From assembly GCA_041389825.1 (NCBI GenBank), contig JAWKRC010000007.1:61093-125092 (forward strand): 64,000 nucleotides of DNA, written 5' to 3'. Each line of letters begins with the position of its first letter. Position 1 is the stretch's first letter. This DNA is from Polyangiales bacterium. Lineage in GTDB: Bacteria > Myxococcota_A > Polyangia > Polyangiales > Ga0077539. Of the stretch, positions 1-22,557 are shown in pieces. The notes beneath the pieces are model-generated. The model saw only the letters and a program-made list of their open reading frames with translations, was not told where the DNA came from and ran no database searches. Both the position numbers and the translations under genes were made by a program.

Positions 1-1338
1 CACCGCCGACGTGTTCTCTCTCGCGGTGATGACCGTCGAGCTCCTCACCAACACGCCGCTCCCCACGCCCGACGGCCGCGAGACCTGGGCCACGCGCGCG
101 CGGCAGCCCGGCGTCGACCTCGTGGCCGCGCTCGTCGCGCTGCGCGGAGACGTCCCCCGGGCGGTGTGGGAGGTGCTCGGCCGCTCGCTGTCGTCGTCTC
201 CGCGGGCGCGGCCGCAGAGCGTGCAGCAGCTCCAGCGCGCCCTGCGCGAGGCGTGGCAGTCGAGCGGCGAGTGGGACCGTTCGAGCGCGAACGACCCCGA
301 CCCCCCGATGCCCTCGGCCGTCCCCCCGCCGCCGCGCCCCGCGATGCCCGCGGGCTCCGCCGCGAGCGCGATCTCGGGCTGGCGCTCCGCCGAGCGCGTG
401 GCCGAGCCCACCGCCGCGCCAGTGAAGCCCGCGGTGCAGTACGGCGCCACGATGCGCACGCCGCGCGGGATGATCCCGACCGAGCACGCGCCCATCGAGA
501 CCCCCGCGTCACCGAGGGGCACCACGCCCGACCCCACCGAGTACGTGAACCTCGGCGCGCGAGCCTCTGGAGCGAGGGGCCTCCCACCGCGCACGAGGGC
601 ACGCAGGCCCTCGACCTCTCCGTCGCGCAGGCCCTCTTCGGCGAGTCGCTCCCCGACGACGCGCCGGTGTCCGAGGCCCCCGAGGTGGGCACGCAGGTGA
701 TGTCTCGGCCCTTCGCGCCCGCGCCGCAGCCGCCCGCGCCGCTCACCGAGCCGCCCCGCGACGTGCGCGAAGAGACGCGGGCCATCGACCTCGACACCGC
801 CTTCGACAACCTCGAGGGATCGCCGAGCGCGCACGAGTGGCGCGGCTCCATCGCGGGCGAGAGCGACCCCTTCTCGTCTCCGTCGACGGGTCAGGGCTAC
901 ACGCCCCTCACCACGATGAGCCCGCAGCGTGGCCCCGCGCCGCCGCCGTCGTACGAGCCGCCCTCGTACGAGCCCCCTCCGCCGCCGTCCTTCGACCCGC
1001 CGTCGGCGCCGCGCGTGTCGGCGACGCCCTTCGCGCCCGGGCCTCCGATGGCCCCGCCTGGCTATCCGCCGCGGAACTCTCCCGCGCCCGCGCAGCCGCA
1101 GCCCCCGCCTCCGCAGCGGGGAGGCTTCCCCGGCGACGACCCCTTCGCGCCGATGAAGACCATGGCGATGCCCACGTGGCAGACGCCGCCGCTGTCGCAG
1201 CCGTCTCCGCAGCCGCGCGCGTCGACGCCCACCGCGCCGCCGACCGAACCGACGCCCCGCTGGATGATCTACGCGGGCCTCGCGCTCCTGCTCATCATCC
1301 TCGCCGCTGGAGGGTTCCTCTACCTACGGCTTCGTTGA
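1..1338 (+). CDS. Ser/Thr protein kinase, C-terminal part. It is 5'-truncated by the window edge. It contains kinase subdomains IX-XI, a Pro-rich linker and a C-terminal TM anchor. The frame breaks at about nt 560-575.
   Basis: DVFSLAVMTVELLT (subdomain IX) lies at the window start. A Pro-rich PxxP/PPSYEPPSYEPPPPP linker and a terminal hydrophobic helix (LALLLIILAAGGFLYL) precede the stop at 1336-1338. Coding signal moves from the 11..700 frame to the 166..1338 frame near 560-575. Confidence 0.6.
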   Translation, partial: HRRRVLSRGDDRRAPHQHAAPHARRPRDLGHARAAARRRPRGRARRAARRRPPGGVGGARPLAVVVSAGAAAERAAAPARPARGVAVERRVGPFERERPRPPDALGRPPAAAPRDARGLRRERDLGLALRRARGRAHRRASEARGAVRRHDAHAARDDPDRARAHRDPRVTEGHHARPHRVREPRRASLWSEGPPTAHEGTQALDLSVAQALFGESLPDDAPVSEAPEVGTQVMSRPFAPAPQPPAPLTEPPRDVREETRAIDLDTAFDNLEGSPSAHEWRGSIAGESDPFSSPSTGQGYTPLTTMSPQRGPAPPPSYEPPSYEPPPPPSFDPPSAPRVSATPFAPGPPMAPPGYPPRNSPAPAQPQPPPPQRGGFPGDDPFAPMKTMAMPTWQTPPLSQPSPQPRASTPTAPPTEPTPRWMIYAGLALLLIILAAGGFLYLRLR

Positions 1339-1371
1339 TTGTCGCGCGCGGTCGTGGTGCCATCGGGCGCC

Positions 1372-1773
1372 ATGCCCCCGGCCGCGCGACTCGGAGACAA
1401 CCACGTCTGCCCCAAGGTCGAGCCCGGCCCCGTGCCTCACGTGGGCGGGCCCATCCTCCCTGGCTGCGAACCCACGGTGCTCATCGGCAACAAGCCCGCG
1501 GCGCGCGTGGGCGACAAGGCCCAGTGCAACGCGCCGCCCGACACCATCAAGATGGGCGCGCCCTCGGTGCTCATCGGCAACCAGCAGGCCGCGCGCATCG
1601 GAGACCCCACCGCGCACGGCGGCGTGATCGTCGCGGGCGAGTCCACCGTGCTCATCGGGACGACCGCCCAGGCCGCGGTGCTCCGTGCGGCGGCCGCGTC
1701 GGGCGCGCCCTTCTGCGAGGAGTGCGAGCGGGCGCGGGCGCGCATGGCCAGCGAGAGGTCCGCCGCAACGTGA
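1372..1773 (+). CDS. PAAR-domain protein (T6SS spike-tip family). The alternative start is TTG 1339, immediately after the kinase stop.
   Basis: Three PAAR motifs are present (PAARLGD, PAARVGD, AARIGD), spaced by VLIGN segments and conserved Cys/His. The stop TGA 1771-1773 overlaps the next gene's GTG (GTGA). Confidence 0.8.
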   Translation: MPPAARLGDNHVCPKVEPGPVPHVGGPILPGCEPTVLIGNKPAARVGDKAQCNAPPDTIKMGAPSVLIGNQQAARIGDPTAHGGVIVAGESTVLIGTTAQAAVLRAAAASGAPFCEECERARARMASERSAAT

Positions 1774-2318
1774 GCGAGGGCGACCGCGCCGCCGCGGTGG
1801 TCGAGCGACTTCGCGCCGAGGGAGAGGGCCTCTACGCGGTGCTCGACGCCGCCCGCGACGACCACGTGCTCGCGGCCATCTCCCGCTCGGGGGAGCGCTT
1901 CCGATCGCTCTACGAGGGCTGGCAGGGCGACGGCCTCGCCGACGTGGCCCCGTACCTCGTCGAGCTCCCCTCGGGCAGCGCCTTCGTCGATCGGCTGGTG
2001 CGCGAGGGCTGGGGCGAGTCGTGGGGGATCTTCCTCGTGACGCCCGAGGATTTCTTCTCCGTGCGACGTCACCTCCGGCGCTTCCTCCGCGTGGTCGACC
2101 ACGACGGCAAGCGCTTGCTCTTCCGCTACTACGACCCGCGGGTGATGCGCGCGTGGCTGCCCACCTGCACGCCCGACGAGACCCGCGCCTTCTTCGGGAG
2201 CGCCTCGGCCTTCATCACCGAGGGCCGCCGCGGAGCGACCTTCTTGCGCTTCACGCCTGGGCCCGAGGGGGCCGAGGTCGAGACCTTCCCACTGCCTGAC
2301 GAGAGCCCCGAGCCATGA
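1770..2318 (+). CDS. DUF4123-family protein (T6SS effector adaptor/chaperone, Tap/Tec-like).
   Basis: Carries LYAVLDAARD...ADVAPYLVEL...WG.FLVT...HLRRFLRV...LLFRYYDPRVMRAWLP...FFG signatures. GTG 1770 overlaps the PAAR stop. The stop overlaps the next ATG (ATGA at 2315-2318). Confidence 0.75.
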   Translation: MSEGDRAAAVVERLRAEGEGLYAVLDAARDDHVLAAISRSGERFRSLYEGWQGDGLADVAPYLVELPSGSAFVDRLVREGWGESWGIFLVTPEDFFSVRRHLRRFLRVVDHDGKRLLFRYYDPRVMRAWLPTCTPDETRAFFGSASAFITEGRRGATFLRFTPGPEGAEVETFPLPDESPEP

Positions 2319-3205
2319 CCGCGCTGTCGCTCCGCCTGACCATCCTCACCGGCCCGCACTCGGGCCACGTCGTCGACGTGCCCGCGGGCGCGCCCCGCAC
2401 CTTCGGCCGCGGCGCCGCGAGCGACGTGCAGCTCCTCGACGAGGCGATGTCCGAGGTGCACTTCGCGCTGCACCTCGACGACGCGGGCGCGGTGCAGGTG
2501 CGCGACCTCTCGGGCGGAGGCACCACGCTCAACGACCGCGGCGTGACCGACGGCGCCGCGCGCGACGGCGACCACCTCAGCGCGGGCGCGACGCGCTTCT
2601 CCATCGCGGTGGTGTCCTCCGACGGCCCCGTGGTCGAAGACGTCGACGAGCTCTCGCCCGAGCTGGTCGCCGCGGCGATGCAGCGGAGCGCGCCCGACTG
2701 CGCGCGCTGGGCGCTCCAGTCCGAAGACGGCTCGCACTACGCGCTGGTCGACGTGGCGAACGACCCCGAGCTCCTTCGCCTCTTCGAGGCGGGCGGCGAG
2801 AGCTACTGCGCCCTCGACGAGACCCGCGACCCCGACGACCTCGGCGAGACCGCCCCCGTGCTCGCCTACCTCCCCGTGGGGACGGAGTTCCTCGCGCAGG
2901 TCTTCGACGAGTGCTGGTCGATGGGCAACGCGGTCTTCTTCGCGAGCGACCGGCCCTTCATCGAGGTCTACGACCACGTCATCCGCCAGCTCACCTGGGA
3001 GGAGGACGGCCGCATCGGGGGCCTGCGCTTCTGGCTCCCGCGGGTGCTCGCGGCGCAGCTCCCGGGCACCGACGCCGAGCGCGCGGCGGCCTTCTTCGGT
3101 CCGGTGCGGGCGTTCCTCGTCGAGAGCGAAGACGGCCGCGAGGCGCTGCGCTTCTCGCTAGAGGGCGGGGCCGTGGTGCAGCGGCGGATCGCGCTGCAGC
3201 TCTGA
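2315..3205 (+). CDS. FHA domain fused to a second DUF4123 domain.
   Basis: N-terminal FHA signature (RTFGRG..SDVQL...HF.L......V.DLSGGGTTLN). The C-terminal half repeats the DUF4123 pattern (HYALVDVANDPELL...APVLAYLPVG...LRFWLPRVLAAQLP...FFGPVRAF). Confidence 0.75.
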   Translation: MTALSLRLTILTGPHSGHVVDVPAGAPRTFGRGAASDVQLLDEAMSEVHFALHLDDAGAVQVRDLSGGGTTLNDRGVTDGAARDGDHLSAGATRFSIAVVSSDGPVVEDVDELSPELVAAAMQRSAPDCARWALQSEDGSHYALVDVANDPELLRLFEAGGESYCALDETRDPDDLGETAPVLAYLPVGTEFLAQVFDECWSMGNAVFFASDRPFIEVYDHVIRQLTWEEDGRIGGLRFWLPRVLAAQLPGTDAERAAAFFGPVRAFLVESEDGREALRFSLEGGAVVQRRIALQL

Positions 3206-3385
3206 GCGGGGCGCCCACACCCCCACGGTCTCGCGCATCGGCGACGGGTCGAACAATCTCGACCAGAGCGCGTCGCCGTCGTCGGTGAGCTCCGCGAGGA
3301 AGGCCGCGTCGAGCGTGACCCACTTCATCTTCCGCAGGAGCCCCTGCGTGGCCTTCACGAAGGTCTGGAGCCTCGGGTCTTCGAC
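3158..3385 (-). CDS. Small hypothetical protein convergent with the DUF4123 genes. Its start is uncertain. The open frame with coding-like GC3 runs up to about 3597.
   Basis: The minus-strand frame shows about 90% G/C at codon position 3 over about 146 codons. The ATG at 3358 gives 66 aa (MKWVTLDAAFLAELTDDGDALWSRLFDPSPMRETVGVWAP...). An in-frame GTG lies at 3385. There is no canonical start further upstream. Confidence 0.3.
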   Translation of the reverse strand, partial: VEDPRLQTFVKATQGLLRKMKWVTLDAAFLAELTDDGDALWSRLFDPSPMRETVGVWAPRSELQRDPPLHHGPAL

Positions 3386-3946
3386 GCCCGCGAGGCGCGT
3401 CTCTTCGACCCACGCGCCGTCGTCGTGAGTCTCTCCGCGGAGGCGGCACTCTTGAAGCGTGGCGAAGCGGCCGACGCGCGAAGCCCACGCGGGCGCGTCT
3501 CGTCGGGCGACGCGGGATTCACGACACCGATTTCGCGCGTCTCGGTACAGGCGGTCGTCGGTGGTGGCGACGAGGCCAGAGCCATCGCGCGCCCTCTCCG
3601 TCGACCCCTAGACGGCCCGAGCGGGGAGGCCTCGGCGCAGGCGGTCGCGAAGCGGTCGAGCTCGGCGTCGTCCGGTGCGCGTCGGGTCGAGGCGCGGCCC
3701 GCGAGGCGCGCGAGGCGCGGTGCCGCTCGCGCTCACGGGTGATGCCGCAGGTGCCGCCGCAGGTGGACATCGGTGGAGCATCCCCAGAGGTCGCGGAGGA
3801 GCAAGGCGCACCCGACGCGGTTCGGGTGGGGACGCGGGCGTTCCGGCCGTCACCGTCTTCGCGTGGGAGTGATCCCACCAGGACGCGCGGACCAGGCCGC
3901 CGACGCGCCCGTGAGCGCCCGTGACCGCGCAGAGAGGAGATCCACC

Positions 3947-4383: not shown

Positions 4384-5325
4384 ATGGAGATCGCGCTCGT
4401 CATGGGCTTCCCCGCGTCGGGGAAGTCCACCTGGACCCAGAAGAACCTCCCCTCGCACCGTCGCGTGAACCGCGACCTCGACGGAGGCAGCCTCGACGAC
4501 CTCCTCCCGCTCATCGAGCGCGCCCTCGACGCGGGGGAGAGCGTGGTGCTCGACAACACCTACGCCACCGTCGACACCCGCAGGCCCGTGCTCGATCTCG
4601 CGAAGCGCCGCGGGGTGCCCGTGCGCTGCGTGTGGCTCGACGGCTCCATCGAAGACGCCCAGCGCAACGCCGCGATCCGGCTCGTGCAGAAGCACGGCAG
4701 GCTCCCCTCGCCCGCCGAGATCAAATCGCTCGGCAAGAACGACCCCAACACCTTTCCGCCCGCGCCGCTCTTCGCGTACCGCAAGCGCTTCGAGAAGCCC
4801 ACCGCGGCCGAGGGCTTCGCCGCCATCGACCGCGTCGCCTTCGCGCGCGAGCTGCACGCGGGGGTGGGCGATCGTCGCGCGGTGATCCTCGACTACGACG
4901 GCACGCTGCGCGCCACGAAGAGCGGAGAGAAATACCCGCGCAGCCCCGACGACATCGCGATCCTCCCCGGGCGCGCCGAGAAGCTCGCGAGGCTCAAGGC
5001 CGACGGATGGCTCCTCTTCGGCGTCTCGAACCAGGGCGACGTCGCGCGCGGAAAGCTCTCCGCGGACGACGCCCGCGCCTGCTTTGCGCGCACCAACGAG
5101 CTCCTCGGCCACGACATCGAGGTGCGCTTCTGCCCGCACGACCCCGCGCCCATCTCGTGCTGGTGCCGTAAGCCCATGCCCGGCTTCGGCGTCGAGATCG
5201 CGGTGCTCCACGGCCTCGACCCCGCGCGCTGCGTGATGGTCGGCGACCAGACCACCGACGAGACCTTCGCGAAGCGAGCGGGCTTCGCCTTCGAGCACGC
5301 CGACCGCTTCTTCTCGACGCCGTAG
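4384..5325 (+). CDS. Bifunctional polynucleotide 5'-kinase / 3'-phosphatase-like protein. It has an N-terminal P-loop kinase and a C-terminal HAD phosphatase, the same order as T4 Pnk.
   Basis: Walker A GFPASGKST is present. HAD motifs are ILDYDGTL (DxDGT), GVSNQ and MVGDQTTDE. The CWCRKPMPGFG motif is the C.CRKP.PG hallmark of PNKP/GmhB-type 3'-phosphatases. Confidence 0.8.
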   Translation: MEIALVMGFPASGKSTWTQKNLPSHRRVNRDLDGGSLDDLLPLIERALDAGESVVLDNTYATVDTRRPVLDLAKRRGVPVRCVWLDGSIEDAQRNAAIRLVQKHGRLPSPAEIKSLGKNDPNTFPPAPLFAYRKRFEKPTAAEGFAAIDRVAFARELHAGVGDRRAVILDYDGTLRATKSGEKYPRSPDDIAILPGRAEKLARLKADGWLLFGVSNQGDVARGKLSADDARACFARTNELLGHDIEVRFCPHDPAPISCWCRKPMPGFGVEIAVLHGLDPARCVMVGDQTTDETFAKRAGFAFEHADRFFSTP

Positions 5326-5366
5326 CGCCCCGCGCCGCGGCGCTTCGGGTAGCCTCGCGCTCGCGC

Positions 5367-5843
5367 ATGAGCACGCCGCTCCGCGAGCGACCCTACGACT
5401 GGATCTTCGTCGGGGTCTTCGGCCTCCTGACCCCGACCACCGTGGTCTTCGACCTGCTCCCGCTCCTCGGCGTGGGGTGGGCGCGGCGCGCGATCGAGGT
5501 CGGCTACGCGCCCTGCGACCCGATGTTCGTCGCGATGCCGCCGTTCCTGCGCGTGGGCGTGGTCGCCTCGGCGGTGCTCTGGTGGCCGCTATACCTCTAC
5601 TTCGCCTGGGGCTTCGTGAAGGGGCGCAACGCGATCCGCACCGCCGCGCTCCTCTACGCGGGGGCCCTGACCATGGCGATGACCATGATCTTCGCCGAGG
5701 CGCTGTTCAGCGCCGTCCCCGGGTGGCGCACGCCGGCGCCCGCGACCTTCATCGCGGCCAACGCCGCGTACCTCGTGCTGCCGCTCGCGCTCGCGTGGCG
5801 CATGCGCTCGCCCTTCCCCTTCGGCGGAGACCAGCCCGGGTAG
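5367..5843 (+). CDS. Four-TM membrane protein, EXPERA/TMEM97-like.
   Basis: 158 aa with four hydrophobic helices. Size and topology resemble the EXPERA family. The ATG start is present. Confidence 0.5.
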   Translation: MSTPLRERPYDWIFVGVFGLLTPTTVVFDLLPLLGVGWARRAIEVGYAPCDPMFVAMPPFLRVGVVASAVLWWPLYLYFAWGFVKGRNAIRTAALLYAGALTMAMTMIFAEALFSAVPGWRTPAPATFIAANAAYLVLPLALAWRMRSPFPFGGDQPG

Positions 5844-5846
5844 CGC

Positions 5847-7537
5847 CTACGCGCTGCCGAGCGTGCCGAACCACCGCCGCGGCCCCTGCCGCACGACGCT
5901 CGCCGCCACCAGCAGCACCAAGAGCGCCGCGCTCACCCACTCCACGGGGGTGTGCGCGTGGCGCGCGAGGCCGTGGATCTCGGGCACGCTCCCCCGCGGG
6001 ATCAGCGCGTTGGCGACCCAGCCCGCCGCCGCGCCCACCAGCACCAGCACCACGGGCAGCGTGCGCGCCGCCCTCGGCCCCGCGTGCTCGCGGAAGGCTC
6101 CGATGGTCACGGGCCCGGAGCCCCCGGCCACCAGCACCCACGCGAGCGCCGCGCCCACCGACAGGCCCTTGTGCACCAGCACCGCCGCGACGGGCAGCGC
6201 CGCGAGGAGCCCGCTCGAACGCAACCCCCGCGAGCGCGCCCAGGAGCACGTCCCACCGGCCGCAGAGCGGCGCGAGGAGCGAGGGGTCGAGGGCCGCCTC
6301 GAGCACCGCCGCGGCCACGAAGCCGAGCGACAGCCGCAGCGCCGAGGTGTCGAGCCGGTCGTGCGCCGCGACCGTCGCGACCGGGCCGTCGCTCTCTTCT
6401 TCGTCGTGGTGGTGGTGATGGTGGTGGCCGTGGTCGTGGGTCACGCCCGTGTTCGCGGGCGCGCGGCGCTCCCTGCGCAGCGCGAGCGCGAGGCCCGCGG
6501 CGCCCACCGCCACCGCCGCGACCGCGGCCCCGGCGAAGCGCCATCCCCATCAATCGCGCGCCCAGCGTGAGCGACACCGGGTCGAGCGCGACCCGCGCCG
6601 CCGCCCACGCGCCGAGCGCCGCCACGGGGAGGCCCTCGCGCAGCATCCCGTGGAGGCCCTCGGGCTCGCGCAGCCCTCGCAAGGTCGACGCGAACAGGCC
6701 GTGCCCCGTCGTCGGCGCGACGCGGCGCAGGAGCGCGAGGAGCGCGACGCCCACGAGCACCGCGGGCGCGCACTCGACGAAGAGGGCCGTGAGCGCGTCG
6801 GCGGCGTTGAGCTCCGCGGCCTGCGAGCGCAGGAGCACGCTGTCGGGGTCGGGCACCCACACCACCAGCGCCGCGCCGAAGAGGAAGGCCGCGCCCGAGA
6901 GCGCGCGACCGCGCACCGTGGTGGGCGGCGGCGAGTGACTGTGCAGCACGAGCCGCAGGATCGCCCCCGCCGCGAGGGCCACCACCGCGTCGAGGAAGGC
7001 GTCAGGGACGTGCGTGAGGAGCAGCCGACCTCCGACGGCGCCGATCACCGTCGCGGCGCCCACGGCGCCGAGGCGGAGGGCCGTGCCGCGCCAGCCGAAG
7101 ATGGGCAGGAGCGCCGAGGTCATGAACAGCCCCTCGGGCAGCCGGTGCAGGAGCAGCGCCGCCACGAGGCCCGGACGGAAGCCCGCGCCCGACGAGGCCG
7201 TGGCCACCGCGAGGCCCGCGCCGTCGCTCAGCGCGTGCAGGGCGAGCGCGGGGACGACCACCTGCGCGCCCACGCGCGCGCCGCCGCGGTGGAGCTTGCG
7301 GTCGGCGCCCCAGAGGAGCGCGTAGCCCGCGAGCACGAGGAGGATGCCCGTCACGGCGCCGACGCCCTCGACGACGTGCGGCACGAGGCGCAGCGCGAGG
7401 ATGGTGGGCACCACGCCGAGGGTGAAGCCCTCGATGGCGGCGGAGGGCAGGGCGCGGCCGCGGCCGAGGGCGACCAGGGCGGGGCCCACCGCGAGGCCCG
7501 CCAGCGAGAGCGCCAGCGACGTGACGAGGAGGCTCAC
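5847..7537 (-). CDS. His-rich polytopic membrane transporter, ZupT/ZIP-like. It lies immediately downstream of the Zur-like regulator. The frame breaks at about 6535 and about 6235, so the model is stitched over three frames.
   Basis: LHRLPEGLF matches the ZIP TM4 HN.PEG motif. A HDHGHHHHHHHDEEESD tract is present. Coding-like segments lie in frames 7537-6540, 6548-6250 and 6224-5847. R/G-rich junk follows in each abandoned frame. Confidence 0.4.
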
Positions 7538-10296: not shown

Positions 10297-11620
10297 TCGG
10301 GCGGGCGCGGTCGGCGATGAAGCGCTCGAGGGCCGCTCGCTCCTCGGACGTGATCCCGTAGAGCGCGCACACCCGCGCCTCCACCGCGGCGACGCGCTCC
10401 GGCGTCGGGCCGTCGATGGTGAGGGACCGCACCATCTCCGTGACGCCGTCGCGGAGGGAGTCGTCGGGAGGCGCGGGCAGCGCGCGGAGGTGCGCGACCT
10501 TCACCTGCGGGAAGGCGGCCTGACGTCCGTCGCGGCGAGAGGCGAGGTGCAGCGCGCGGAGGGGAGCGCTGTTGAGGCAGGCCACGGCGAGCGCGGGGTC
10601 GGCCCCGTCGAGGGCGAAGCCCGCGAGGAGCGAGTTGCGGAAGGGCGACGGGTCACGGTGGAGCGCCGCGATGGGGAAGGCCGCCGTCTGCCGCACCACG
10701 AAGGCCACGGCGCGCCACGCCTCGGGAGGGCGCATCCGCGCGCGCGCGGCGCGCAGCGCGACGGGGTCGGGGTCGAGCCACCGACGCGCGGGGCCGACGC
10801 GGTACGGGGTCACGTCCTTTCCCTCGCGTAAGGGGACGGTGTGGCGCTCCGAGGGCGCGTCGGCGATCAGCGCGCGCACCGCGGGGCTGGTCTGCACGCC
10901 CACGTCGCTGAAGGTCTCAGGCGCGAAGCGAGGGAGGGCCGCGAGGCGCGCGAGGCACCGCGGGGGTTCGACCACCACGGCCTCGACGCCCGCGCGTCGG
11001 CGCTCGCGCAGCGTCCACGGTCGCGGGTCGGGGGGCGCGTCGCGGCGCGCCCCGAGCATGGCGAAGCAGGGCTGCACCACACCCTCGAAGACGTCGGGGC
11101 CGAACTCCTCCATGGGCTCGGCCAGCGCGACCCGGGCGCTCACCGCGCGACGCACGGGCGCGTAGCCGTCGAGGTCGGCCATCGCCGACGGGAGCAGCAA
11201 GGCCACCACGCCGCCCGGCGTGAGGAGCGCGGTGGCGCGGTCGGCGAAGGCCCCGTGCAGCGTGGGGTATCCGCCGAAGCCCTCGTAGCGCGCGCGCAGC
11301 GCTTCGCGGCGCGCGAGGGAGATGGGGCGCGAGGCGCGACCCGCGTAGGCGACCCAGGGGGGGTTGCCCACCACGAGGTCGGCCGGGTCGAGCGCGAGGT
11401 CGAGGGCGTCGCCCACCGTCACCGCAGAGAGCGCCGCGGGCGGGGGCTCCCGCGCGCCCGAGGCGAGCCAGAGCGAGAGGCGCGCGGCGTGGGCGGCCTC
11501 GGGGTCGAGGTCGACGCCGCGGAGGCGCGCGAGGGCATCGTTCGTAGACCCAACGATCTCCGCGAGGGCGCGCATCGCCGCGACGAGGAAGACGCCCGCG
11601 CCGCAGGCCGGGTCGAGCAC
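10289..11620 (-). CDS. N6-adenine DNA methyltransferase (gamma class, Eco57I/TaqI-like). The true N-terminus extends upstream to about 11850 but has no canonical start codon.
   Basis: Motif I is VLDPACGAGVFL. Motif IV is GNPPW. Motif X (GRWFTPRTIAAHLV) lies upstream of the first GTG (11620), in an open frame with high GC3 that runs to a stop at about 11933 without ATG/GTG/TTG. Confidence 0.7.
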   Translation of the reverse strand: MLDPACGAGVFLVAAMRALAEIVGSTNDALARLRGVDLDPEAAHAARLSLWLASGAREPPPAALSAVTVGDALDLALDPADLVVGNPPWVAYAGRASRPISLARREALRARYEGFGGYPTLHGAFADRATALLTPGGVVALLLPSAMADLDGYAPVRRAVSARVALAEPMEEFGPDVFEGVVQPCFAMLGARRDAPPDPRPWTLRERRRAGVEAVVVEPPRCLARLAALPRFAPETFSDVGVQTSPAVRALIADAPSERHTVPLREGKDVTPYRVGPARRWLDPDPVALRAARARMRPPEAWRAVAFVVRQTAAFPIAALHRDPSPFRNSLLAGFALDGADPALAVACLNSAPLRALHLASRRDGRQAAFPQVKVAHLRALPAPPDDSLRDGVTEMVRSLTIDGPTPERVAAVEARVCALYGITSEERAALERFIADRARPIR

Positions 11621-11971
11621 GGTGGGGGCAGCGCCGCGCCAGCGTGAGAGGGCCTCGCGGACGAGGTGCGCCGCGATCGTTCGCGGGGTGAACCATCGGC
11701 CGGCGTCCTCGCGCGCGCCGTCGCGGAGGCGCTCGAAGGCCGGGCCGAGGGCGTCGGCGTCGAGGGCGGGGACGTCGAGCGTGAGCGCGGGGTCGACCGA
11801 GGGAAGGTTGTCGCCGAACCATCGTCGGGCGTCGGCGGCGGTGGGTCGCTCGTGGCCGCGGCGCGCGCGGCGGAGAGGGTGAGCGAGAGCCGGAGCGCCT
11901 CGGTCGGAGGGACGCCCTCGGCGACGAGCCGGTCACGCGCGCGGGGTCGAGCGGGTGCGGGGCGCGGCGCT

Positions 11972-12277
11972 TCACGGGGCGCGGCGCTGCTTGCGCTGGA
12001 GCGAGGCGATGCGGGCGTCGATGGCGTCGAGGCGCGTGGTGCGAAAGGCCCGGTCGAGCAGGCGAGAGCCGATGAAGAGGAAGGCCACCGCGAAGAGGAA
12101 GCCCCACTGCCGCGGCAGGCCGACGGCTTCTTGCAGGAGCACGCCGAGGCCGAGGCCCAGGCCGAAGGCGGCGAGGGTCACGGGGATGAGCACGTTGGTG
12201 CGGTGGGCCTCCCACCAGGTGATGCGCTTGAAGAGGCGCTCGCGCTCGTCGCGCAGGCGGGAGAGTTCGTCGTCCAT
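11972..12277 (-). CDS. Small membrane protein (N-terminal coiled segment plus two TM helices).
   Basis: 101 aa. Coding-like codon usage. Hydrophobic segments are VLIPVTLAAFGLGLGLGVLL and FLFAVAFLFIG. Confidence 0.55.
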   Translation of the reverse strand: MDDELSRLRDERERLFKRITWWEAHRTNVLIPVTLAAFGLGLGLGVLLQEAVGLPRQWGFLFAVAFLFIGSRLLDRAFRTTRLDAIDARIASLQRKQRRAP

Positions 12278-12323
12278 CGCGTCGTGGCCTTCGGGGCCGC
12301 GAGCATAGGCGCGCTCGGGGGGA

Positions 12324-13634
12324 TCAGCGAGCGCGGTCGATGCACCGCCGGGTGCTCTGCCCCGCGGCGTTGGCGAGGGCCCCCGCGGGCCACGCGAGCA
12401 CGAAGTTGAAGCACATCTCGTCTTCGGTGCGCTCGCCGAAGAAGACCGTCGCGCTGCTGACGTTGTCGTAGCGGCAGACCGTGCGGAGGCGGTCTCCGGG
12501 CATGATGACCAGGTCGGAGGGTCGGCTCACCTGCGCGTCGAAGGAGTAGTCGGTGACGTCGGTGAGCGTGTCCATCCGGGCGGCGGAGCCTCCGCGGTGG
12601 ACCTCGCTGCGCAGGGCCGTCCCGTTGCGGTGCATGTGCGCGGTCGACCCGAGCACGTGGATGGGCTCGGTGGCGGCGGGCGTGCACCAGCCCTCGGTCT
12701 CGTAGCCCGTCGACCGCGGAGGGATCGCGATGTTGAGCGTGCCGAGCCAGTGGACGGCCGCGGTGTGCGGGCGGGGCGCGTCGGTGGTGCACATCTCGAT
12801 GCCGCTCGCGTCGTCGGCCGCGTCGAGGGTGTTGTTCCAGTAGTGGGTCTGGAGGATGAACCACTCGCCCTCGCCGGGGAGCTCGAGGCCCACGTCGGAG
12901 GGGAGCACCGTGCCCTGGTTGCCGGGCGCCCATCCCGCGATGAAGCGCGCGTCGCGGGGCATGTTGCCGTCGCAGTCGAAGACCTCTCCCGCGGCGGGGC
13001 GAGACGCGGTGGAGAAGAGGATGAGGTGGTGCAGCACCCTGGCGTTGTCGACGCGCGCGGCGAAGGCCGTGGCCTGCTGCGCGCCGCGGAAGGGCGACTG
13101 GAACGCGAAGCAGCGGTTGAGGTTCCCCGCGGCGCCGGGGACGGTGTAGCGGTCGGCGACGGTGGGGCCGTGCGCGAGGAAGGCGCGGCGCTCGCTCGGC
13201 GCGCAGGGGAGCCGGTCGGCGGGGCTCTCGACCGCGTCGGGCCCCGTCATGCTCCCGCAGTCGGAGCCCGTACAGCCGGGCGCGCCCGCGGCGATCCAGC
13301 GGTCGAAGGTCGCGAGGTCAGCCTCGGACAAGCGCGCGGGCGGCATCGGCCGCACGGGGTCGTGGACGCGCTCGCCCATGAGGTTCCACACCTGCCGGGC
13401 GGGGGCGCTCGCGGCGGGACGTCGCGTGTCGTCCCATCGGGCGAGCGACATCGGCGCGCCGTAGCGCGGCGTGGCCGCGTGGCACGAGACGCAGTTGCCC
13501 TCGATGATCCGCGCGATCTCGAGCGGGTACGACATCCCGCTGCCGGGGTCGGTCGGCGCCGCGCCGTCGCCCGAGCAGCCCAGGGTGGTCGACGCCGCGA
13601 GCACGATCGCGGCGCGGAGGAAATCGTTTCGCAT
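12324..13634 (-). CDS. Lipoprotein combining a c-type heme motif with a copper type II ascorbate-dependent monooxygenase-like (PHM/DBH-like) domain.
   Basis: The signal is MRNDFLRAAIVLAASTTLGC (lipobox). A CVSCH (CxxCH) motif is present. The CuH-like site is HH...(63 aa)...H (VLHHLILF ... LQTHYW). The CuM-like site is HMH...(about 75 aa)...M in a DEMCF context (cf. PHM DEMCN). Confidence 0.7.
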   Translation of the reverse strand: MRNDFLRAAIVLAASTTLGCSGDGAAPTDPGSGMSYPLEIARIIEGNCVSCHAATPRYGAPMSLARWDDTRRPAASAPARQVWNLMGERVHDPVRPMPPARLSEADLATFDRWIAAGAPGCTGSDCGSMTGPDAVESPADRLPCAPSERRAFLAHGPTVADRYTVPGAAGNLNRCFAFQSPFRGAQQATAFAARVDNARVLHHLILFSTASRPAAGEVFDCDGNMPRDARFIAGWAPGNQGTVLPSDVGLELPGEGEWFILQTHYWNNTLDAADDASGIEMCTTDAPRPHTAAVHWLGTLNIAIPPRSTGYETEGWCTPAATEPIHVLGSTAHMHRNGTALRSEVHRGGSAARMDTLTDVTDYSFDAQVSRPSDLVIMPGDRLRTVCRYDNVSSATVFFGERTEDEMCFNFVLAWPAGALANAAGQSTRRCIDRAR

Positions 13635-13660
13635 CGTCGGCCTCATGGGTGAAGGGGGCG

Positions 13661-14320
13661 TCATTGCACGCGGCGAAGGTCGAAGATCAGCGCGGCCTGG
13701 AGCGGGGCCGCGCCGAGGTAGACGAAGAGCCGCGCGCGGTCGGCCGCGTCGCGGGAGAAGGCGAAGCCCGAGGGGCCGGCCATCGCGCCCATGCCGAGGG
13801 TGCCGCTCATCGTGGTGCACTCGGGGGTGAGGGTGAGGCGCTCGCCCTGCACGGTGAACGCGCCGCGGCCGCCGAGGCGCGAGGGCCGCGGCACGGGCCC
13901 GGCCATGACGGTGTTCACGCGGATCACCAGGTCGGAGAGGAGCCGATAGCGACCGGCGGAGAAGTCTCCCCACGCGACGCCGCTGAGCTCGGAGCCGCTC
14001 TCGTCGAGCTGACCGCGCGCGACCTCGGGGAACCACAGGGTCGCCCCGTCGGCCACCCAGCGCCCCTCGGGGTCGCCGCCCGAGGGCGTGGGGATCACGG
14101 CGCCTGCGTCTCCGCCCGCGATGCGGACCGCGCCCGTGAAGGTGGGCGTGGTGGGCGGATCGCCGAGGTCGCACGCGGCGGCGTCGGCGCCCGCGTCGGT
14201 CTCGGCCGCGACGTCGCTCGCGACGTCAGTGAGGGCGCCCGCGTCGGAGGGCGCGTTGGAGTCGTCGCCGCACGCGCCGAGGAGGAGCGCGAGAGGAACC
14301 CACCGAACGGATCGCGTCAC
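13661..14320 (-). CDS. Lipoprotein of unknown function, directly upstream of the Cu-monooxygenase-like gene.
   Basis: The GTG start gives VTRSVRWVPLALLLGACGDD (lipobox). About 220 aa. The upstream part of the ORF is Arg-rich junk. Confidence 0.55.
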   Translation of the reverse strand: MTRSVRWVPLALLLGACGDDSNAPSDAGALTDVASDVAAETDAGADAAACDLGDPPTTPTFTGAVRIAGGDAGAVIPTPSGGDPEGRWVADGATLWFPEVARGQLDESGSELSGVAWGDFSAGRYRLLSDLVIRVNTVMAGPVPRPSRLGGRGAFTVQGERLTLTPECTTMSGTLGMGAMAGPSGFAFSRDAADRARLFVYLGAAPLQAALIFDLRRVQ

Positions 14321-14477
14321 GCGGAGGGTGTTACCAAGAGTCGGGCCGACGCGCGTGGGGCGAGCGCGCGGCACTGACGGCGCGAGGGGCGCTGTCGACG
14401 GCAGGCCGCAGGTGTCGCGCGCGGTGCTCGGGGCTGAGGGGTGGAAGACCCGGCGCGGTGGCCCTACGGTCGCGCGT

Positions 14478-15365
14478 ATGACGAGGCGGGTGCTGGTCGC
14501 GGGCGCGTCGGGCGCGCTCGGTCGACGGGTGACCCTCGCGGCGCGCGCCGCGGGGTGGGCGGTGCGGGCCCTGGTGCGTGACCCGGCGAGGCTGCGCGAC
14601 GCCGCCGACGCGGTGGACGAGGTGCGCCAGGGAGACGCGCTGAGGCCCGACACCCTCGCGGGGCTCTGCGACGGGGTCGACGCGGTGTTCTCCTGCGTGG
14701 GCGCGTCGGTGTCGGGCGAGCTCGGCGCGGGGCGGGCGACCTACCGCGACGTGGACATCCCCGCGAACGCGAACCTCATCGCCGAGGCGAAGCGCGCGGG
14801 GGTCGGCCGCTTCGTCTACACCGCCGTCTGGAACCGCGACCCGGCCGTCGCCGCGACCGCGTACGTCTCCGCGCACGACGCCGTGGTCGACGCGTTGCGC
14901 GCGAGCGGGCTGTCGTACTCCGCGATCCGCCCGGTGGGCTTCTTCTCGATCTACGACCAGATCCTCGCGATGATCGCCGCGGGCAAGCCCGTGCCCCTCG
15001 TCGGAGACGGCTCGCCCCGCACCAACCCCGTGAGCGACGACGACCTGGGCGAGCTCGCCGTGCGGCTCCTCGACGGCGGCGACCCGGAGGTCGACGCGGG
15101 CGGGCCCGAGACCCTCACCCGCGCGGAGATCCTCGACCGCTGCTTCGGCGCGCTCGACAGACCCTCGAAGCCCCTCAAGATGCCCGCCTGGGCGATGCGC
15201 GCGTCGGCGGTGGCCCTGTGGCCCATCAGCCCGCGCATGGCCGACTTCACCCGCTTCGTCGCCGAGGTCTACACCCGCGACGTGATCGCGCCCTCCGTCG
15301 GAGAGCGCGGACTCGACGACCACCTCGCGGCGGCGGCCGCGCGGATCAAGAGCTCACGCGGGTAG
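14478..15365 (+). CDS. NAD(P)-binding NmrA/SDR-family protein.
   Basis: Carries VLVAGASGALGRRV (GxxGxxG Rossmann motif). 295 aa. Confidence 0.8.
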   Translation: MTRRVLVAGASGALGRRVTLAARAAGWAVRALVRDPARLRDAADAVDEVRQGDALRPDTLAGLCDGVDAVFSCVGASVSGELGAGRATYRDVDIPANANLIAEAKRAGVGRFVYTAVWNRDPAVAATAYVSAHDAVVDALRASGLSYSAIRPVGFFSIYDQILAMIAAGKPVPLVGDGSPRTNPVSDDDLGELAVRLLDGGDPEVDAGGPETLTRAEILDRCFGALDRPSKPLKMPAWAMRASAVALWPISPRMADFTRFVAEVYTRDVIAPSVGERGLDDHLAAAAARIKSSRG

Positions 15366-15484
15366 CACGCAGCGGGTGAGCCGCTCGGCGTTCACGACGC
15401 CCTGCGCGGCCATGTACGCCTCGGCGCTCGCGACCGCCGCGCGACCCGCGGCGCCGCCCTCGAGGCGCCCCGCCCTCGCCCGCG

Positions 15485-18400
15485 TCACCGCCGCGAAGAG
15501 GGCCATCTCGGCCGCGTCGAAGCCGCCGTCGCGCGGCGCAGCGACGCGAGACCGGCCTCGCTCCTCCCCTGCTGGAGCGCGACCCCCGCGCGCAGGAGCT
15601 CGGCGAGCGGCGCGGCCCACGCGAGGGTGCTCTCGTCGATGACCTTCGCGTCGTCGAGCGCGCGCGCGTGGAGCGACGGCGCGTCGAGCCCCGACGCGCG
15701 GGAGGCCACCGCAGCGAGCGCCGCGCGGCCACGGAGCTGGTGGAGCTCGACCCGCGCGCACTCCAGCCGGAGGAGCTGGGCCGACCCGAGGCCCTCCCAC
15801 TCGGCGTCGACGGCGCGGAGCGCGCGGGCGCCCTCTCCGTCGTAGAGCTCGGCCTGCGTGGCGGCGACGAGGTGCTGGTAGCGCTGGAGGTTCCACGCGC
15901 CGGGGGGCCAGGTGGCCTTCACCCGCTCGGCGAGGGCGCGCCACTCGTCGGCGCGGTCGAGGGCGAGCCAGCGCAGCGCCTGCTCGCCGAGCACGTAGCC
16001 GCCCGCGGCGAAGAGGTCTTCGCGGTCTTCAGCCTCGCGCAGCGCGCGCGTGAGGCGCGACGAGAGCTCGGTGAGCCGCCCCATGAGCGCGAGCGACGAG
16101 AGGGCGTAGATCTCCGATGTGGCGACCTCCCACGCGACGCCGCGGCACGCGCTGCGCCACAGGTCCGCGGCTGCGACGCACTCGTCGTGGGCCGAGCGCC
16201 AGCGCGACTCGAACCACGCCGTCGTCCCCCGCGCCATGCGCGCCCACGCGCGGTCGTAGACCGAGCCCGTGCGCGACGCCACGCCGTCGACCACGTCGAG
16301 GATCTTTCGCGCGCGACCGCGGAAGAACGCTCCGCCCACCGAGGCCTCGGAGGTGGCCTCGTACCCGAGGGCGCGCACCGCGCGGGAGGGGTCGCCGATC
16401 TCAAGGGTCGCGGCGAGGTGCTGCACGCCGAGCGCGTCGGCGAAGGCAGGCTGCACCATCGAGTAGCTCACGACCCCCGTCCACATCGCGTCGAGCCGTC
16501 GCAGCGCTCGCCCGACCCGCCACCCCCGCGAGCGCCGCGCCGCGCGGCGTCGAGGGGAGCGACACCCCCGCCGCGTCGAGCACCTCGCGCATCACCCGCA
16601 TCCCCTCGACGTAGCGGCCCGAGCACACGAAGCGCTCCGCCGCGCGACGTCGCAGGTCCATCACCATCGGGTCCGCGGGGCGGGTCTGCGCGAGCGCGGC
16701 GGCGGCCTCCATGAACGCCTGGGCGGCCTCTCCGCCCCTGCCCGCGGAGGTGAGCGCCTCGGCGAGCCGCGTGAGCACCTCGTCGCGGCGGACCGACTTG
16801 TGCGGCGCGCGCAGCGCCACGCGGTAGAGCGAGGCCGCGTGGTCGAAGGCTAGGGCCTCGGCCGCCCTCTCGGCGGCGGGCAGCGCGTAGCGGGCCGCGC
16901 GGTCGTCGTCGCCCGCGCCCACGAGGTGCAGCACCAGCGCGTCGAGGTCGTCGCTCTTCTGGTCGAGCAGGGCGTCGGCGAGACGTCGGTGCGCGTCGCG
17001 GCGCACGGCCTCTCCGCCCGCGGCGAGGATCGCCTCGCGCACGCGGTCGTGCCGGGTCTCGACCGCGGGCTGACCGTCGACGGGCGACAGGCGCAGGAGC
17101 CCCGCGCCCACGAGCCGGGTGACCTCGCGACGTCCCCACTCGCCCATGCTCGCCGCGCGCAGGAGCGTGCGCCGCTCGACGGCCGCGCCCGCGACGGCGG
17201 CGAGCGTGAGGAGCCGCTGCGCGTCGGGGTCGAGGGCGTCGATGCGCCGGCGCACCACGTCGCCGAGCCGAGGGGCGGTCGCGCCGCCGGACTCTTGAAG
17301 GTCTTGCGCGAGCTGGAGCACGAAGAAGGGCGAGCCGCCCGACTCGCGCGCGACGAGCTCGGCGAGCCTGCGGGCCTCGTCGGTGTCAGCGCCGAGGGCC
17401 CTCGCCGCGAGCGCCTCGGCCTCGCGCGGAGGGAGCTGCCCCACCCGCAGCTCGCGCCGGCCCGGGAGCGCGTCGAGGGCCTTGAGGAGGGCGGAGTCGT
17501 CGCGGCGCTCGCTCTGGTAGCTCACCACGAGGAGCAGCGGCGGGGCGTCGTCGCGCGCGAAGAGCTCCTTCGCGAGCGCGGCGCTGTCGGCGTCGGCCCA
17601 CTGGGCGTCGTCGATCCACACCACGAGCGGGGCCGCGCGGGCGACGGAGGCGAGCACGGCGCGCAGGGCCTCGAAGCCGACCTGACGCAGCGCGCGCGAG
17701 TCGACCTCGTCGGGGCGCGGCGGCACCGCCGTCGCGGGCAGCGCGCGAGAGAGCACGGGGAACACCCGGAGCAGCGCCTGCCGGTCGGGCTCGGCGAGGG
17801 CCTCGATGGCCGAGGGCTCGCGCACGAGATCGGCTGAGCGCGTCGACCACGCCGTCGAAGGCCCGGTACGCGACGGACTCCTGCGGCAGGCAGCGGCCGC
17901 GGAGCACCAGCGAGGGCGGCGCGCGCTCGACGCTGGTGATGAAGCGGCGCACGAGCTCGGTCTTGCCCGAGCCCGACACGCCCTCGACGCACACGAGCGT
18001 GAAGGCGCCCTCGCGCGCCGCGGGTAGGCCGCGTCGAGGGCCGCGAGCTCGTCGGCGCGGCCCACGAAGGGGGCTCGGCCGAGGGTCTTCGGGGAGACGC
18101 GTCGGCCGGGGGCGCGTCACGCAGACGGCGCAGCACCTCGCGCGTCGGGTCGGCGCGCGGGGTCGGGGTGCAGGAGGGCGCGTACCAGCTCGTCGTAGCG
18201 GCGCGGGAGCGCGGGGTGCATCTCGGCGGGCGAGGCGAAGCGCGCGGCGCGCTGGAGCGCGAGCACCTCGTCGCGCGTGCCGGTGAAGGGGAGGGCGCCC
18301 GTGAGGGCCTCGTAGAGGACGACGCCGAGGGCGTACCAGTCCGACGCGGGGGTGAGCGCGAGGCCCTGGGCCTGCTCGGGGGACATGTACACGCCCGTGC

Positions 18401-18924
18401 CCACGGGGGCCGAGGCCGAGCCCGTGGTGTCGTTGACGTCCCAGCGGGCGGCGAGGCCGAAGTCGAGGAGCACGACGCGGCCGTCGTGGGAGACCATCAC
18501 GTTCGAGGGCTTGATGTCGCGGTGGAGCCTCCCCGCGGCGTGCACCGCGGCGATGCCCGCGACGAGCTGCGGCAGCGCCGCGTCAAGGCGCGCCACGCCC
18601 GCGCGAGAAGGCCCGTGCCCCCGTCGCGCCGTCGTCGGACCACAGGTGGTCGAGGAGGCCTACGCCGTCGACGACCTCCATGGTGAAGAACGCGCTCGCG
18701 CCGTCGACGAAGAGCTCGTGCAGCTCGACGAGGTTCGGGTGGAGGATCCCCGCGAGCGCGCGGAACTCCTCCTTCAGGTGGTACAGGTCGTCGGAGTCGA
18801 CGCGGCGCAGGGTCTTCAGCGCGACGTCGCGCTGCATCTCCTCGTCGCGCACGCGGTACACGACGCCCATCCCGCCCTTGCCGAGGCACTCGATGACGCG
18901 GAATCGTCGGGTACTGGCGAGCAC
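15485..18924 (-). pseudogene. Ser/Thr kinase–STAND (AAA) ATPase–TPR regulator, about 1150 aa. It is disrupted by at least 4 frameshifts (about 18600, 18125, 17850 and 16440). This is either decay or sequence error.
   Basis: The kinase N-lobe (GKGGMGVVYRV..ALK) is in one frame. The catalytic loop and C-lobe ([15 protein letters not shown]) are in another. The P-loop (GVSGSGKTE) is in a third. Walker B (LVVWIDDAQWAD) plus the helical/TPR body is in a fourth. The C-terminal TPR region is in a fifth. Confidence 0.5.
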
Positions 18925-18961
18925 GCGGGGCGGCGATGGTCCGCCGTCGCCCCGCGGCGGG

Positions 18962-19309
18962 TCAAGACGCTCCGTCGCCCGCGGCGCGCGTCGCGGCCTT
19001 GCGCGGCCACGACACGATCGACCGCGAGGCGGGGTGCTCGCTCAACCGCGACGCGAGCGCGTCTCCCCTCGCCTGGATCTCTTCGTAGAGCGAGGCCACG
19101 GCCTCGCCCGTGCGCGCCGCGCGCTCGCGCGTCTCGCGGTCGGCCTCGAGCTCGGCGCGCTCCATCGCGTCGAGCTCGGCCCTCGCCGCCTCGGCCTCGG
19201 CCAGCGCCGTCGTCAGCGCCGCCCGCGTCGAGGCGAGCGCGGCGTCGGCCGACGCGCGGGCCGACAGCGCCGTGCGCGCGGCGCTCGCGAGGCAGCCCAG
19301 CATCACCAT
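18962..19309 (-). CDS. Small coiled-coil protein. Its start overlaps the stop of the upstream kinase (ATGGTGA).
   Basis: 115 aa, Ala/Glu/Arg-rich heptads. The ATG at 19309 overlaps the TGA of the 19303..20715 kinase. Confidence 0.4.
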   Translation of the reverse strand: MVMLGCLASAARTALSARASADAALASTRAALTTALAEAEAARAELDAMERAELEADRETRERAARTGEAVASLYEEIQARGDALASRLSEHPASRSIVSWPRKAATRAAGDGAS

Positions 19310-20715: not shown

Positions 20716-20842
20716 CCCGCGGCGGCATGGGAGCGTGCCCGCGACGAGGGTGTCAAGCGCGACGCCGACGCCCGAGGCCCGCGCGCAGGGTCGGCGGTGA
20801 CCGCGGAACTCCGTAGCGTCGGAATGGCCGCCGCGAGGGAGC

Positions 20843-22477: not shown

Positions 22478-22557
22478 ACCGCGGAGGATCGCACACGTCG
22501 CGCGGGAGTTCGCGGGGCGTTGCCACGCGCCGTCGGCGGGTGTGACCCTCCCGGGCG

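Follow-up and report, generated by a model that had tools for sequence, protein, structure and literature searches.

A reduced orphan type VI secretion module in a Polyangiales bacterium, with an FHA-bearing DUF4123 adaptor that may dock on a tail-anchored pseudokinase

What a spike-tip protein and two loading adaptors of a type VI secretion system (T6SS) are doing beside a gene of protein kinase fold is the question raised by the first 3.2 kb of a 64-kb stretch of DNA (hereafter the window) from a Polyangiales bacterium (GenBank assembly GCA_041389825.1, contig JAWKRC010000007.1, positions 61,093 to 125,092). An initial annotation, made from the letters alone, described the locus as an orphan operon of a membrane-anchored Hanks kinase, a PAAR protein, a DUF4123 adaptor and a second DUF4123 adaptor fused to an FHA domain, and likened it to the PpkA/Fha1 phosphorylation switch. 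We consider the locus to be a reduced orphan T6SS auxiliary module in which a pseudokinase serves as the scaffold that docks the complex of FHA adaptor and PAAR, and we give this reading as a whole a probability of roughly 0.55. The kind of spike/adaptor module and the FHA-DUF4123 fusion are already known; what appears to be new, judged by the literature that could be searched, is a conserved tail-anchored pseudokinase with multivalent threonine motifs beside FHA adaptors.

The window has a G+C content of ~74%, and its genes were called with a codon log-odds caller. Four co-directional open reading frames (ORFs) make up the module:

2..1338, forward strand: tail-anchored pseudokinase gene, 3' two-thirds, with C-lobe, proline-rich disordered linker of ~330 aa and transmembrane helix; the 5' part lies outside the window
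1261-1326, forward strand: C-terminal transmembrane helix of that gene, WMIYAGLALLLIILAAGGFLYL, from reading of the sequence; kept in all orthologues
1372..1773, forward strand: PAAR spike-tip protein, 133 aa, with PAAR domain and conserved helical tail, no toxin domain
1770..2318, forward strand: DUF4123 adaptor, 182 aa, its GTG start overlapping the PAAR stop
2315..3205, forward strand: FHA-DUF4123 adaptor, 296 aa, from Pfam and structure prediction

Read directly from the sequence, the first ORF ends with TGA at 1336-1338, and starts and stops overlap as GTGA at 1770-1773 and as ATGA at 2315-2318. The initial annotation was right about the co-directional order and both overlaps, but not about an abutment at 1336/1339, since alignment with orthologues places the PAAR start at ATG 1372 (MPPAARLGD) and not at TTG 1339, which therefore leaves a 33-nt gap after the first gene. 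Its domain calls were borne out by hidden Markov model (HMM) searches, as Pfam matched all three proteins: PAAR_motif at E=1.3e-24 (86.6 bits, the cut-off being 27; ORF 1339-1773), DUF4123 at E=4.6e-36 and, in the product of 2315-3205, FHA at aa 29-89 (E=1.3e-7), Yop-YscD_cpl (4e-10) and DUF4123 at aa 141-257 (E=4.4e-12). Structure prediction agreed with the two-domain assignment of this last protein, giving an FHA fold (an 11-stranded β-sandwich) over aa 1-101 (nt 2315-2617), then a disordered linker (aa 104-123) and a DUF4123 fold over aa 126-296 (nt 2690-3202).

Relatives were collected as 33 loci (numbered with L below) from word-based, exhaustive and pattern searches, and two further distant places were available as gene tables. 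An exact match to the window FHA-DUF4123 protein was sought and none is on record; for the window PAAR, exact matching led to L030. The window belongs to clade B (together with L001-4, L007 and L030; 73-98% identity), in which homogentisate genes are followed by pseudokinase, PAAR, DUF4123 and FHA-DUF4123, and then by a convergent gene for a 212-aa protein and a PNK-like gene. Clade A (L009-L016 and L019; ~46% identity), from metagenome-assembled genomes (MAGs) labelled Myxococcaceae, Polyangiales or Myxococcales, has the same four genes plus a convergent operon in the order VgrG, C6 (127 aa), C11 (537 aa) and C10 (266 aa). The VgrG, of 879 aa (Phage_GPD E=2e-63, Phage_base_V, Gp5_trimer_C), is convergent to the module in L009-L016, L017 and L020, and L008 and L012 have FHA-DUF4123 alone facing vgrG. 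More distant Myxococcota-like loci have a PAAR-toxin fusion and then one or two FHA-DUF4123 genes, the PAAR being fused to a VgrG3-like lysozyme in L005 and L017 and to CHAP in L006, L022, L023 and L025. In clade B (window, L001-3, L007 and L030), as in clade A (L009-L016 and L019), a pseudokinase gene is found upstream of the module; in L005, L021 and L022, where the genomic context differs and has an integrase nearby, a different pseudokinase sits immediately upstream of it. Linkage of a kinase-fold protein to the module, which the initial annotation had read from a single locus, recurs in this way in three Myxococcota lineages.

The portion of the upstream gene within the window begins at subdomain IX (TADVFSLAV) and holds the C-lobe only, and nothing in Pfam scored in this fragment; the catalytic residues were thus read on orthologues, as the N-lobe lies outside the window. 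Intact orthologues (653-736 aa) match Pkinase/PK_Tyr_Ser-Thr; the gene encodes 658 aa in L002 and L003 and 653 aa in L030, whose PAAR is identical to that of the window. They were aligned with three canonical Hanks kinases of this dataset and with Mycobacterium tuberculosis PknB in what we take to be its sequence. The VAIK position reads VSVSLL, VTVSLL or AQVEFL (VEFL), the HRDLKPxN position HRGLNPRS or HRALTPRS (HERLNPAS in the L005 lineage) and the DFG position DFG, DLG or DAG, so that the β3 Lys is replaced by S/E, the HRD Asp by G/A/R, the catalytic-loop Lys by N/T and the Asn by S. These losses are found in every clade A and B orthologue, L030 included; in the L005 lineage the Lys alone survives. 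Most orthologues still have the DFG Asp and APE motifs. Having lost the Lys that anchors ATP, the catalytic Asp, and both Lys and Asn of the catalytic loop, the product of the upstream gene is, judged by orthology, a catalytically dead, membrane-tethered pseudokinase, and the active Hanks kinase first proposed is not supported except for its membrane anchor. Only RLR follows the transmembrane helix, indicating a tail-anchored protein without an extracytoplasmic or sensor domain. Next to the pseudokinase and divergent from it, L005 also carries a canonical, apparently active Hanks kinase (4737-6209 (-); VAVK, HRDLKPAN, DFG) that is a candidate for phosphorylating the linker threonines in trans. 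Among the annotated neighbours, no PP2C phosphatase was found.

The linker of ~330 aa is proline-rich and poorly conserved save for short islands, four to five of which are conserved T-x-x-[ILVM] motifs:

536..547, forward strand: first island, T-E-Y-V, in frame 2; TE(Y/H/M)(V/I)xL across clades A and B
601..618, forward strand: second island, T-Q-A-L-D-L, of the form T-x-x-Φ-D; in all clade A/B orthologues, TVALD in L005
691..702, forward strand: third island, T-Q-V-M (GTQVMS), whose Thr column (T444) is invariant in a 7-sequence alignment
775..792, forward strand: fourth island, T-R-A-I-D-L; TRAID kept across clades A and B
1159..1170, forward strand: fifth island, T-M-A-M (PMKTMAMP), with DPF repeats nearby

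The L005 lineage has the counterparts GETLALD, GDTMPIDD and GDTLPLD. In eight linkers from the three lineages, TxxΦ was enriched 2-3x (p=0.0008-0.05) and TxxΦ[DE] 7-15x (p=0.0006-0.036) over composition-preserving shuffles, figures that come from related sequences and carry modest p-values. FHA domains choose their phosphothreonine ligands mainly by the +3 residue, and several prefer an aliphatic residue there. The T-x-x-[ILVM]-(D/E) islands are plausible candidates for FHA docking sites.

The other half of the argument concerns the spike-tip protein and its adaptors. PAAR is 83-96% identical in relatives, with an identical protein on 3 other contigs, and its dN/dS, the ratio of non-synonymous to synonymous substitution rates, is 0.07 against L007 and 0.05 against L002; the plain DUF4123 orthologues are 57-85% identical (dN/dS 0.42 and 0.30, respectively), FHA-DUF4123 gives 0.16 and 0.24, and the pseudokinase linker ~0.3. 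By these values, purifying selection acts here in a lineage with no vgrG arm alongside. PAAR ends in a helical CxxC tail, AQAAVLRAAAASGAPFCEECERARARM (~nt 1666-1746), and the same segment joins PAAR to the toxin in the fusions of L005, L006, L017, L022 and L023, so that the window PAAR is a toxin-less member of a specialised-effector PAAR family. The vgrG gene stands next to orthologous PAARs of 83-87% identity in L009-L016, and next to a 76%-identical PAAR in L020. The DUF4123 motifs of the window FHA-DUF4123 protein are degenerate, with LRFWLPRVL against FRFYDPRVL in T6SS-embedded FHA-DUF4123 proteins.

In the window itself, no T6SS core family was detected among the 20 larger ORFs, tblastn found no VgrG, a six-frame HMM search found no C6, and homologues of C10 and C11 were looked for and none was found. 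Additionally, the PAAR lies upstream of the adaptors but no effector was recognised downstream of them in the window, and the order spike-adaptor-effector is not seen; the initial annotation's statement that neither a T6SS core gene nor a recognisable toxin accompanies the module holds within the window. Its word orphan suits the window lineage, but not the relatives with vgrG next door or the distant family members inside complete T6SS clusters. In comparison with the adaptors of the Tap-1/TEC type (Vibrio cholerae) and the Tke5 adaptor of Pseudomonas putida (PDB 9r8g), the window genes are alike in matching Pfam DUF4123 and in lying directly 3' of a spike gene, but they differ in having no following effector gene and in being two tandem adaptors, one with FHA. 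For the adaptors of close relatives, a likelier client than an effector encoded on its own is the tail of a PAAR-toxin fusion; in relatives, the client would be such a fusion or the C6/C11 genes.

The wider family puts this module in context. With clusters at 50% identity, the exhaustive search returned 2,397 representatives at E<=1e-3, of which 449 reached E<=1e-10; the majority of the best 150 span both domains, and some have 2-4 FHA copies. A profile search gave 1,332 clusters at 90% identity, and PF13503 and PF00498 occurred together in all 120 listed of them; some already bear the name 'DUF4123/FHA domain-containing protein', and Acidobacteriota MAGs are the source of several. Five of the six distant contexts sampled run VgrG, PAAR, FHA-DUF4123 with TssF/G, ClpV, TssB/C or TssA within 10 kb, and one of these five then has an RHS toxin. 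The locus comprises a PAAR and two loading adaptors of the DUF4123 family, a family that is embedded in T6SS loci elsewhere. The suggestion that the fusion is an undescribed architecture has to be withdrawn, since two papers name it, besides the 1,332 clusters that carry it: in Unterweger et al. 2015 (PMC4557670), Fha appears in a list of additional domains that DUF4123 proteins carry, and a 2020 adaptor survey in the Computational and Structural Biotechnology Journal (PMC7714669) gives FHA as the commonest extra DUF4123 domain, at 1.1%. As for the pseudokinase, the searchable literature (DUF4123 with kinase, pseudokinase or myxobacteria) yielded no description of its linkage to DUF4123 modules.

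In the wider family the order extends as VgrG, PAAR, FHA-DUF4123, C6 (~125 aa), a large protein and a mid-sized protein, the large protein being the likely effector and the mid-sized one a possible immunity gene. The C6 homologue was present in all four distant loci examined at the DNA level, and the C6 genes recorded are as follows:

L009 13341-13724, reverse strand: C6
L017 4904-5284, reverse strand: C6
L020 733-1110, reverse strand: C6
L005 10828-11220: C6
L028 11081-11458: C6
L033 11286-11672: C6
L029 12506-12892: C6
L027 11780-12544: C6, in tandem

C6, of ~125 aa and without a Pfam match, accompanies FHA-DUF4123 from Myxococcota to Acidobacteriota-type T6SS clusters, usually just before the large likely effector, and may be a co-adaptor or an immunity-like partner. 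C11 (537-645 aa) and C10 (~270 aa), which follow VgrG-C6 and also have no Pfam match (L009 11716-13329 (-) and 10903-11703 (-); L017 2957-4894 (-)), are candidates for a new T6SS effector/immunity pair in Myxococcota. The FHA-DUF4123 proteins of T6SS clusters (L027-L029, Acidobacteriota-type) resemble that of the window in their two domains, their ~300 aa and their position after PAAR; their genes adjoin core genes, in the order VgrG, PAAR, FHA-DUF4123, C6 and large protein, and have no kinase in the neighbourhood. In contrast, the window copy lacks vgrG, C6 and core genes, and adds an FHA-less DUF4123 and a pseudokinase neighbour. The window lineage has kept only the PAAR and the two adaptors, under purifying selection, and we infer that these continue to work for a T6SS whose genes lie elsewhere in the genome. 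Their task may be to sharpen a VgrG spike or complete it and, possibly, to load cargo encoded in trans.

How the pseudokinase would take part can be proposed from the FHA domain, which would dock the adaptor-PAAR complex on the membrane-tethered pseudokinase. In a first mode, binding to the linker would be phospho-dependent, the threonines being phosphorylated by one of many trans-acting Ser/Thr kinases (several other Hanks kinases are encoded within the window); in a second mode, it would be phospho-independent and run through the pseudokinase domain, by analogy with EssB/YukC and the FHA domains of EssC/YukB. Either mode would concentrate and gate spike-tip or cargo loading at the inner membrane. 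The first mode resembles in concept the mycobacterial PknB-FhaA pair, in which an FHA domain docks on Thr motifs of a kinase linker near the membrane. PknB is active and autophosphorylates its own linker, whereas a trans-acting kinase would be needed here, and the window FHA lacks the loop Asn. By both sequence and fold, the window FHA is most similar to mycobacterial FhaA/GarA (3po8, 3oun, 6i2q). For the second mode there is a precedent in type VIIb secretion (T7SSb), where the membrane pseudokinase EssB/YukC binds the EssC/YukB FHA domains (PMC9436818; bioRxiv 10.1101/2020.05.09.085852). The likeness, a membrane pseudokinase paired with an FHA-bearing secretion component, is an analogy only. 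T7SSb is another secretion system in another phylum, with an extracellular domain on EssB and with FHA domains that are part of the ATPase; the window-type pseudokinase has a long disordered TxxΦ linker, and the FHA domain here keeps its phosphate-binding Arg, Ser and His.

Several observations weigh against the docking scaffold. Besides the modest enrichment statistics given above, the window is without T6SS core gene, vgrG, C6 or effector, and its own pseudokinase gene is frameshifted. The FHA domain keeps the phosphate-binding residues G31-R32 and S46-x-x-H49, but its loop reads S66-G-G-G-T70 against STNGT in FhaA and Rad53, with the conserved Asn and the adjacent Thr lost; this Asn, which we take to be Rad53 N107 (in the numbering G69/R70, S85, H88, T106/N107 of Rad53 FHA1), is lost in the window and in clade B and kept in clade A. 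Classical phosphothreonine-peptide binding may therefore be impaired in the window lineage, and, as GR and SxxH are kept but the Asn is lost, both docking modes stand as candidates. Moreover, a protein kinase was found within 10 kb in none of the six distant family members sampled, one or two opposite-strand genes separate pseudokinase and PAAR in L009, L010, L014, L015 and L016, in L006 the nearest 3.4 kb are free of a pseudokinase, and clades A and B share the same homogentisate-pathway genes upstream, so that the adjacency may partly be inherited synteny.

These last points are the strength of the rival that survives best, which we nevertheless regard as unlikely: that the pseudokinase is an unrelated synteny neighbour, the module being an orphan PAAR with two adaptors, and that all FHA-DUF4123 proteins share one role for the FHA domain, which could be to bind a baseplate or membrane component of the T6SS or else a distal substrate of PpkA. 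All six kinase-free distant loci have FHA, and the opposite-strand genes of clade A, the exception in L006 and the shared homogentisate genes all fit this explanation. Against it stand the recurrence of a pseudokinase in the L005/L021/L022 lineage, in another genomic context that has an integrase nearby, and the case of L008, which retains pseudokinase and FHA-DUF4123 though PAAR and plain DUF4123 are gone; moreover, the TxxΦ(D/E) motifs are conserved and enriched in all three lineages.

A switch of the PpkA/Fha1 kind acting at cargo loading, in which an active membrane Hanks kinase would phosphorylate a target and the adaptor's FHA domain would recognise that mark, is improbable. The order of kinase-fold gene, PAAR and adaptors is conserved, GR and SxxH are kept in the FHA domain, most orthologues still possess the DFG Asp and APE, and a canonical kinase is divergently adjacent in L005; against this, the β3 Lys, HRD Asp, loop Lys and Asn are replaced in every clade A/B orthologue, there is no extracytoplasmic sensor domain, and no PP2C was seen nearby. 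The pathways PpkA/PppA/Fha1 of Pseudomonas aeruginosa and PpkA-TssL-Fha of Agrobacterium tumefaciens (PMC3953482) are alike in pairing a membrane kinase-fold protein and an FHA protein with T6SS genes. They differ in that the kinase-fold protein here is without catalytic residues and periplasmic domain, no PP2C accompanies it, its FHA partner is fused to a cargo adaptor and is not a scaffold of the TagH/Fha1 type, and the window has no core cluster; the mirror of PpkA/Fha1 drawn by the initial annotation fails on the catalytic residues.

That the locus is the decaying remnant of a vgrG island, no longer functional in the window organism, appears more improbable still. Relative to its relatives it has lost vgrG, C6, C11, C10 and the PAAR toxin domain, and both the pseudokinase gene and the convergent gene for the 212-aa protein are frameshifted in the window. 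In the former (2..1338), the third-codon-position G+C (GC3) frame plot follows frame 2 to 558 and frame 1 from 559, with the change at ~550-559; by blastn one G is missing at 558/559 in comparison with L030, and by tblastn both parts of the gene are in a single frame in L001-L003. As the ArsP-like permease, a syntenic transporter (~6308-6545) that is intact in relatives, is also split over two frames here, as is the 212-aa gene, assembly indels are suspected rather than decay, and the frameshifts suggest assembly errors, widespread pseudogenisation being less likely. Furthermore, none of the three core ORFs is broken, and comparison with both the 92% and the 73% relative shows them to be under purifying selection, the reduced four-gene layout is kept in L001-3, L007 and L030, and the pseudokinase is intact wherever the gene is complete (L002, L003 and L030). 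A second protein-kinase gene, at 18117-18924, may likewise be split, being called as two abutting ORFs. Lastly, the view that the tail-anchored pseudokinase is itself cargo loaded by the DUF4123 adaptors onto the PAAR/VgrG spike is scarcely credible, for although such adaptors can carry membrane-active cargo (e.g. the Tke5 complex 9r8g), no other effector lies nearby and the genes are close and co-directional, a cargo gene normally lies downstream of its adaptor, a 330-aa proline-rich disordered linker with a single C-terminal transmembrane helix is not effector-like, no immunity gene is present, and relatives have toxins of their own (PAAR-CHAP, PAAR-lysozyme, C11) alongside the pseudokinase.

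The genes 3' of the module are a convergent gene of the 212-aa type, a scytovirin-like lectin gene and a gene for a PNK-like enzyme:

3164..3770, reverse strand: convergent gene without assigned function, orthologue of the 212-aa protein in L001-4 and L007
3947-4318, forward strand: secreted Cys-rich scytovirin homologue (Pfam SVN E=1e-24), with two repeats and a lipoprotein-like signal
4384-5325, forward strand: PNK-like bifunctional enzyme, AAA_33 kinase plus PNK3P/HAD phosphatase, probably a mere neighbour

The convergent gene overlaps the 3' end of FHA-DUF4123, is split over two frames at 3471-3625 (two tblastn high-scoring segment pairs), and its 212-aa product has no Pfam match; the possibility that it is a diverged C10, and so a possible immunity gene, was rejected, as it has no similarity to the C10 of clade A, and it probably lies outside the module. 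The lectin gene is missing from the syntenic loci L001-4 and L007, which points to a lineage-specific insertion in a Myxococcota-like genome, and the PNK-like gene adjoins the module throughout clade B and not in clade A. The initial annotation had put these two genes forward as the nearest cargo candidates; they are not conserved partners, and both were rejected as cargo, the lectin being absent in syntenic relatives and the PNK-like gene a housekeeping-type neighbour confined to clade B. The remaining genes of the window are housekeeping or unrelated, including gap, pgk and tpi (by position and sequence), HtpG, Fur and others. A region of ~12 kb (~10300-22500) is an insertion relative to the synteny of L001 (abhydrolase … SnoaL-HtpG) and contains a fragment of an Eco57I/MmeI-like methylase, a homologue of Cu type II monooxygenase, a protein with a PKD domain, and Ser/Thr kinases that have AAA_16 regions. 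An 818-aa protein encoded at 30773-33229 (-) carries MVP_shoulder (E=1e-28) and Vault_3; this bacterial protein is a homologue of the major vault protein of eukaryotes.

FHA-DUF4123 adaptors are common and often embedded in T6SS clusters, and we know of no study that has shown what their FHA domain does. The Myxococcota subfamily supplies a concrete candidate partner for it, a membrane-tethered pseudokinase with a few short Thr motifs. Should the interaction not be real, the locus would be an ordinary orphan PAAR/adaptor island; if it is real, effector and spike loading, and not only baseplate assembly, would be open to post-translational gating, and T6SS firing would be tied to the very large Ser/Thr kinase networks of myxobacteria. 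A more specific and tentative idea is that Myxococcota possess a cargo-level T6SS checkpoint, in which the sites of the pseudokinase linker form a landing pad, phospho-regulated or phospho-independent, for FHA-tagged DUF4123 adaptors. If so, the loading of PAAR toxins or spike tips would be licensed at the inner membrane by a eukaryotic-like kinase network, the pair would be the T6SS counterpart of the EssB-EssC pseudokinase-FHA pair of T7SSb, and the presence of FHA on ~1% of DUF4123 adaptors would have its first functional explanation.

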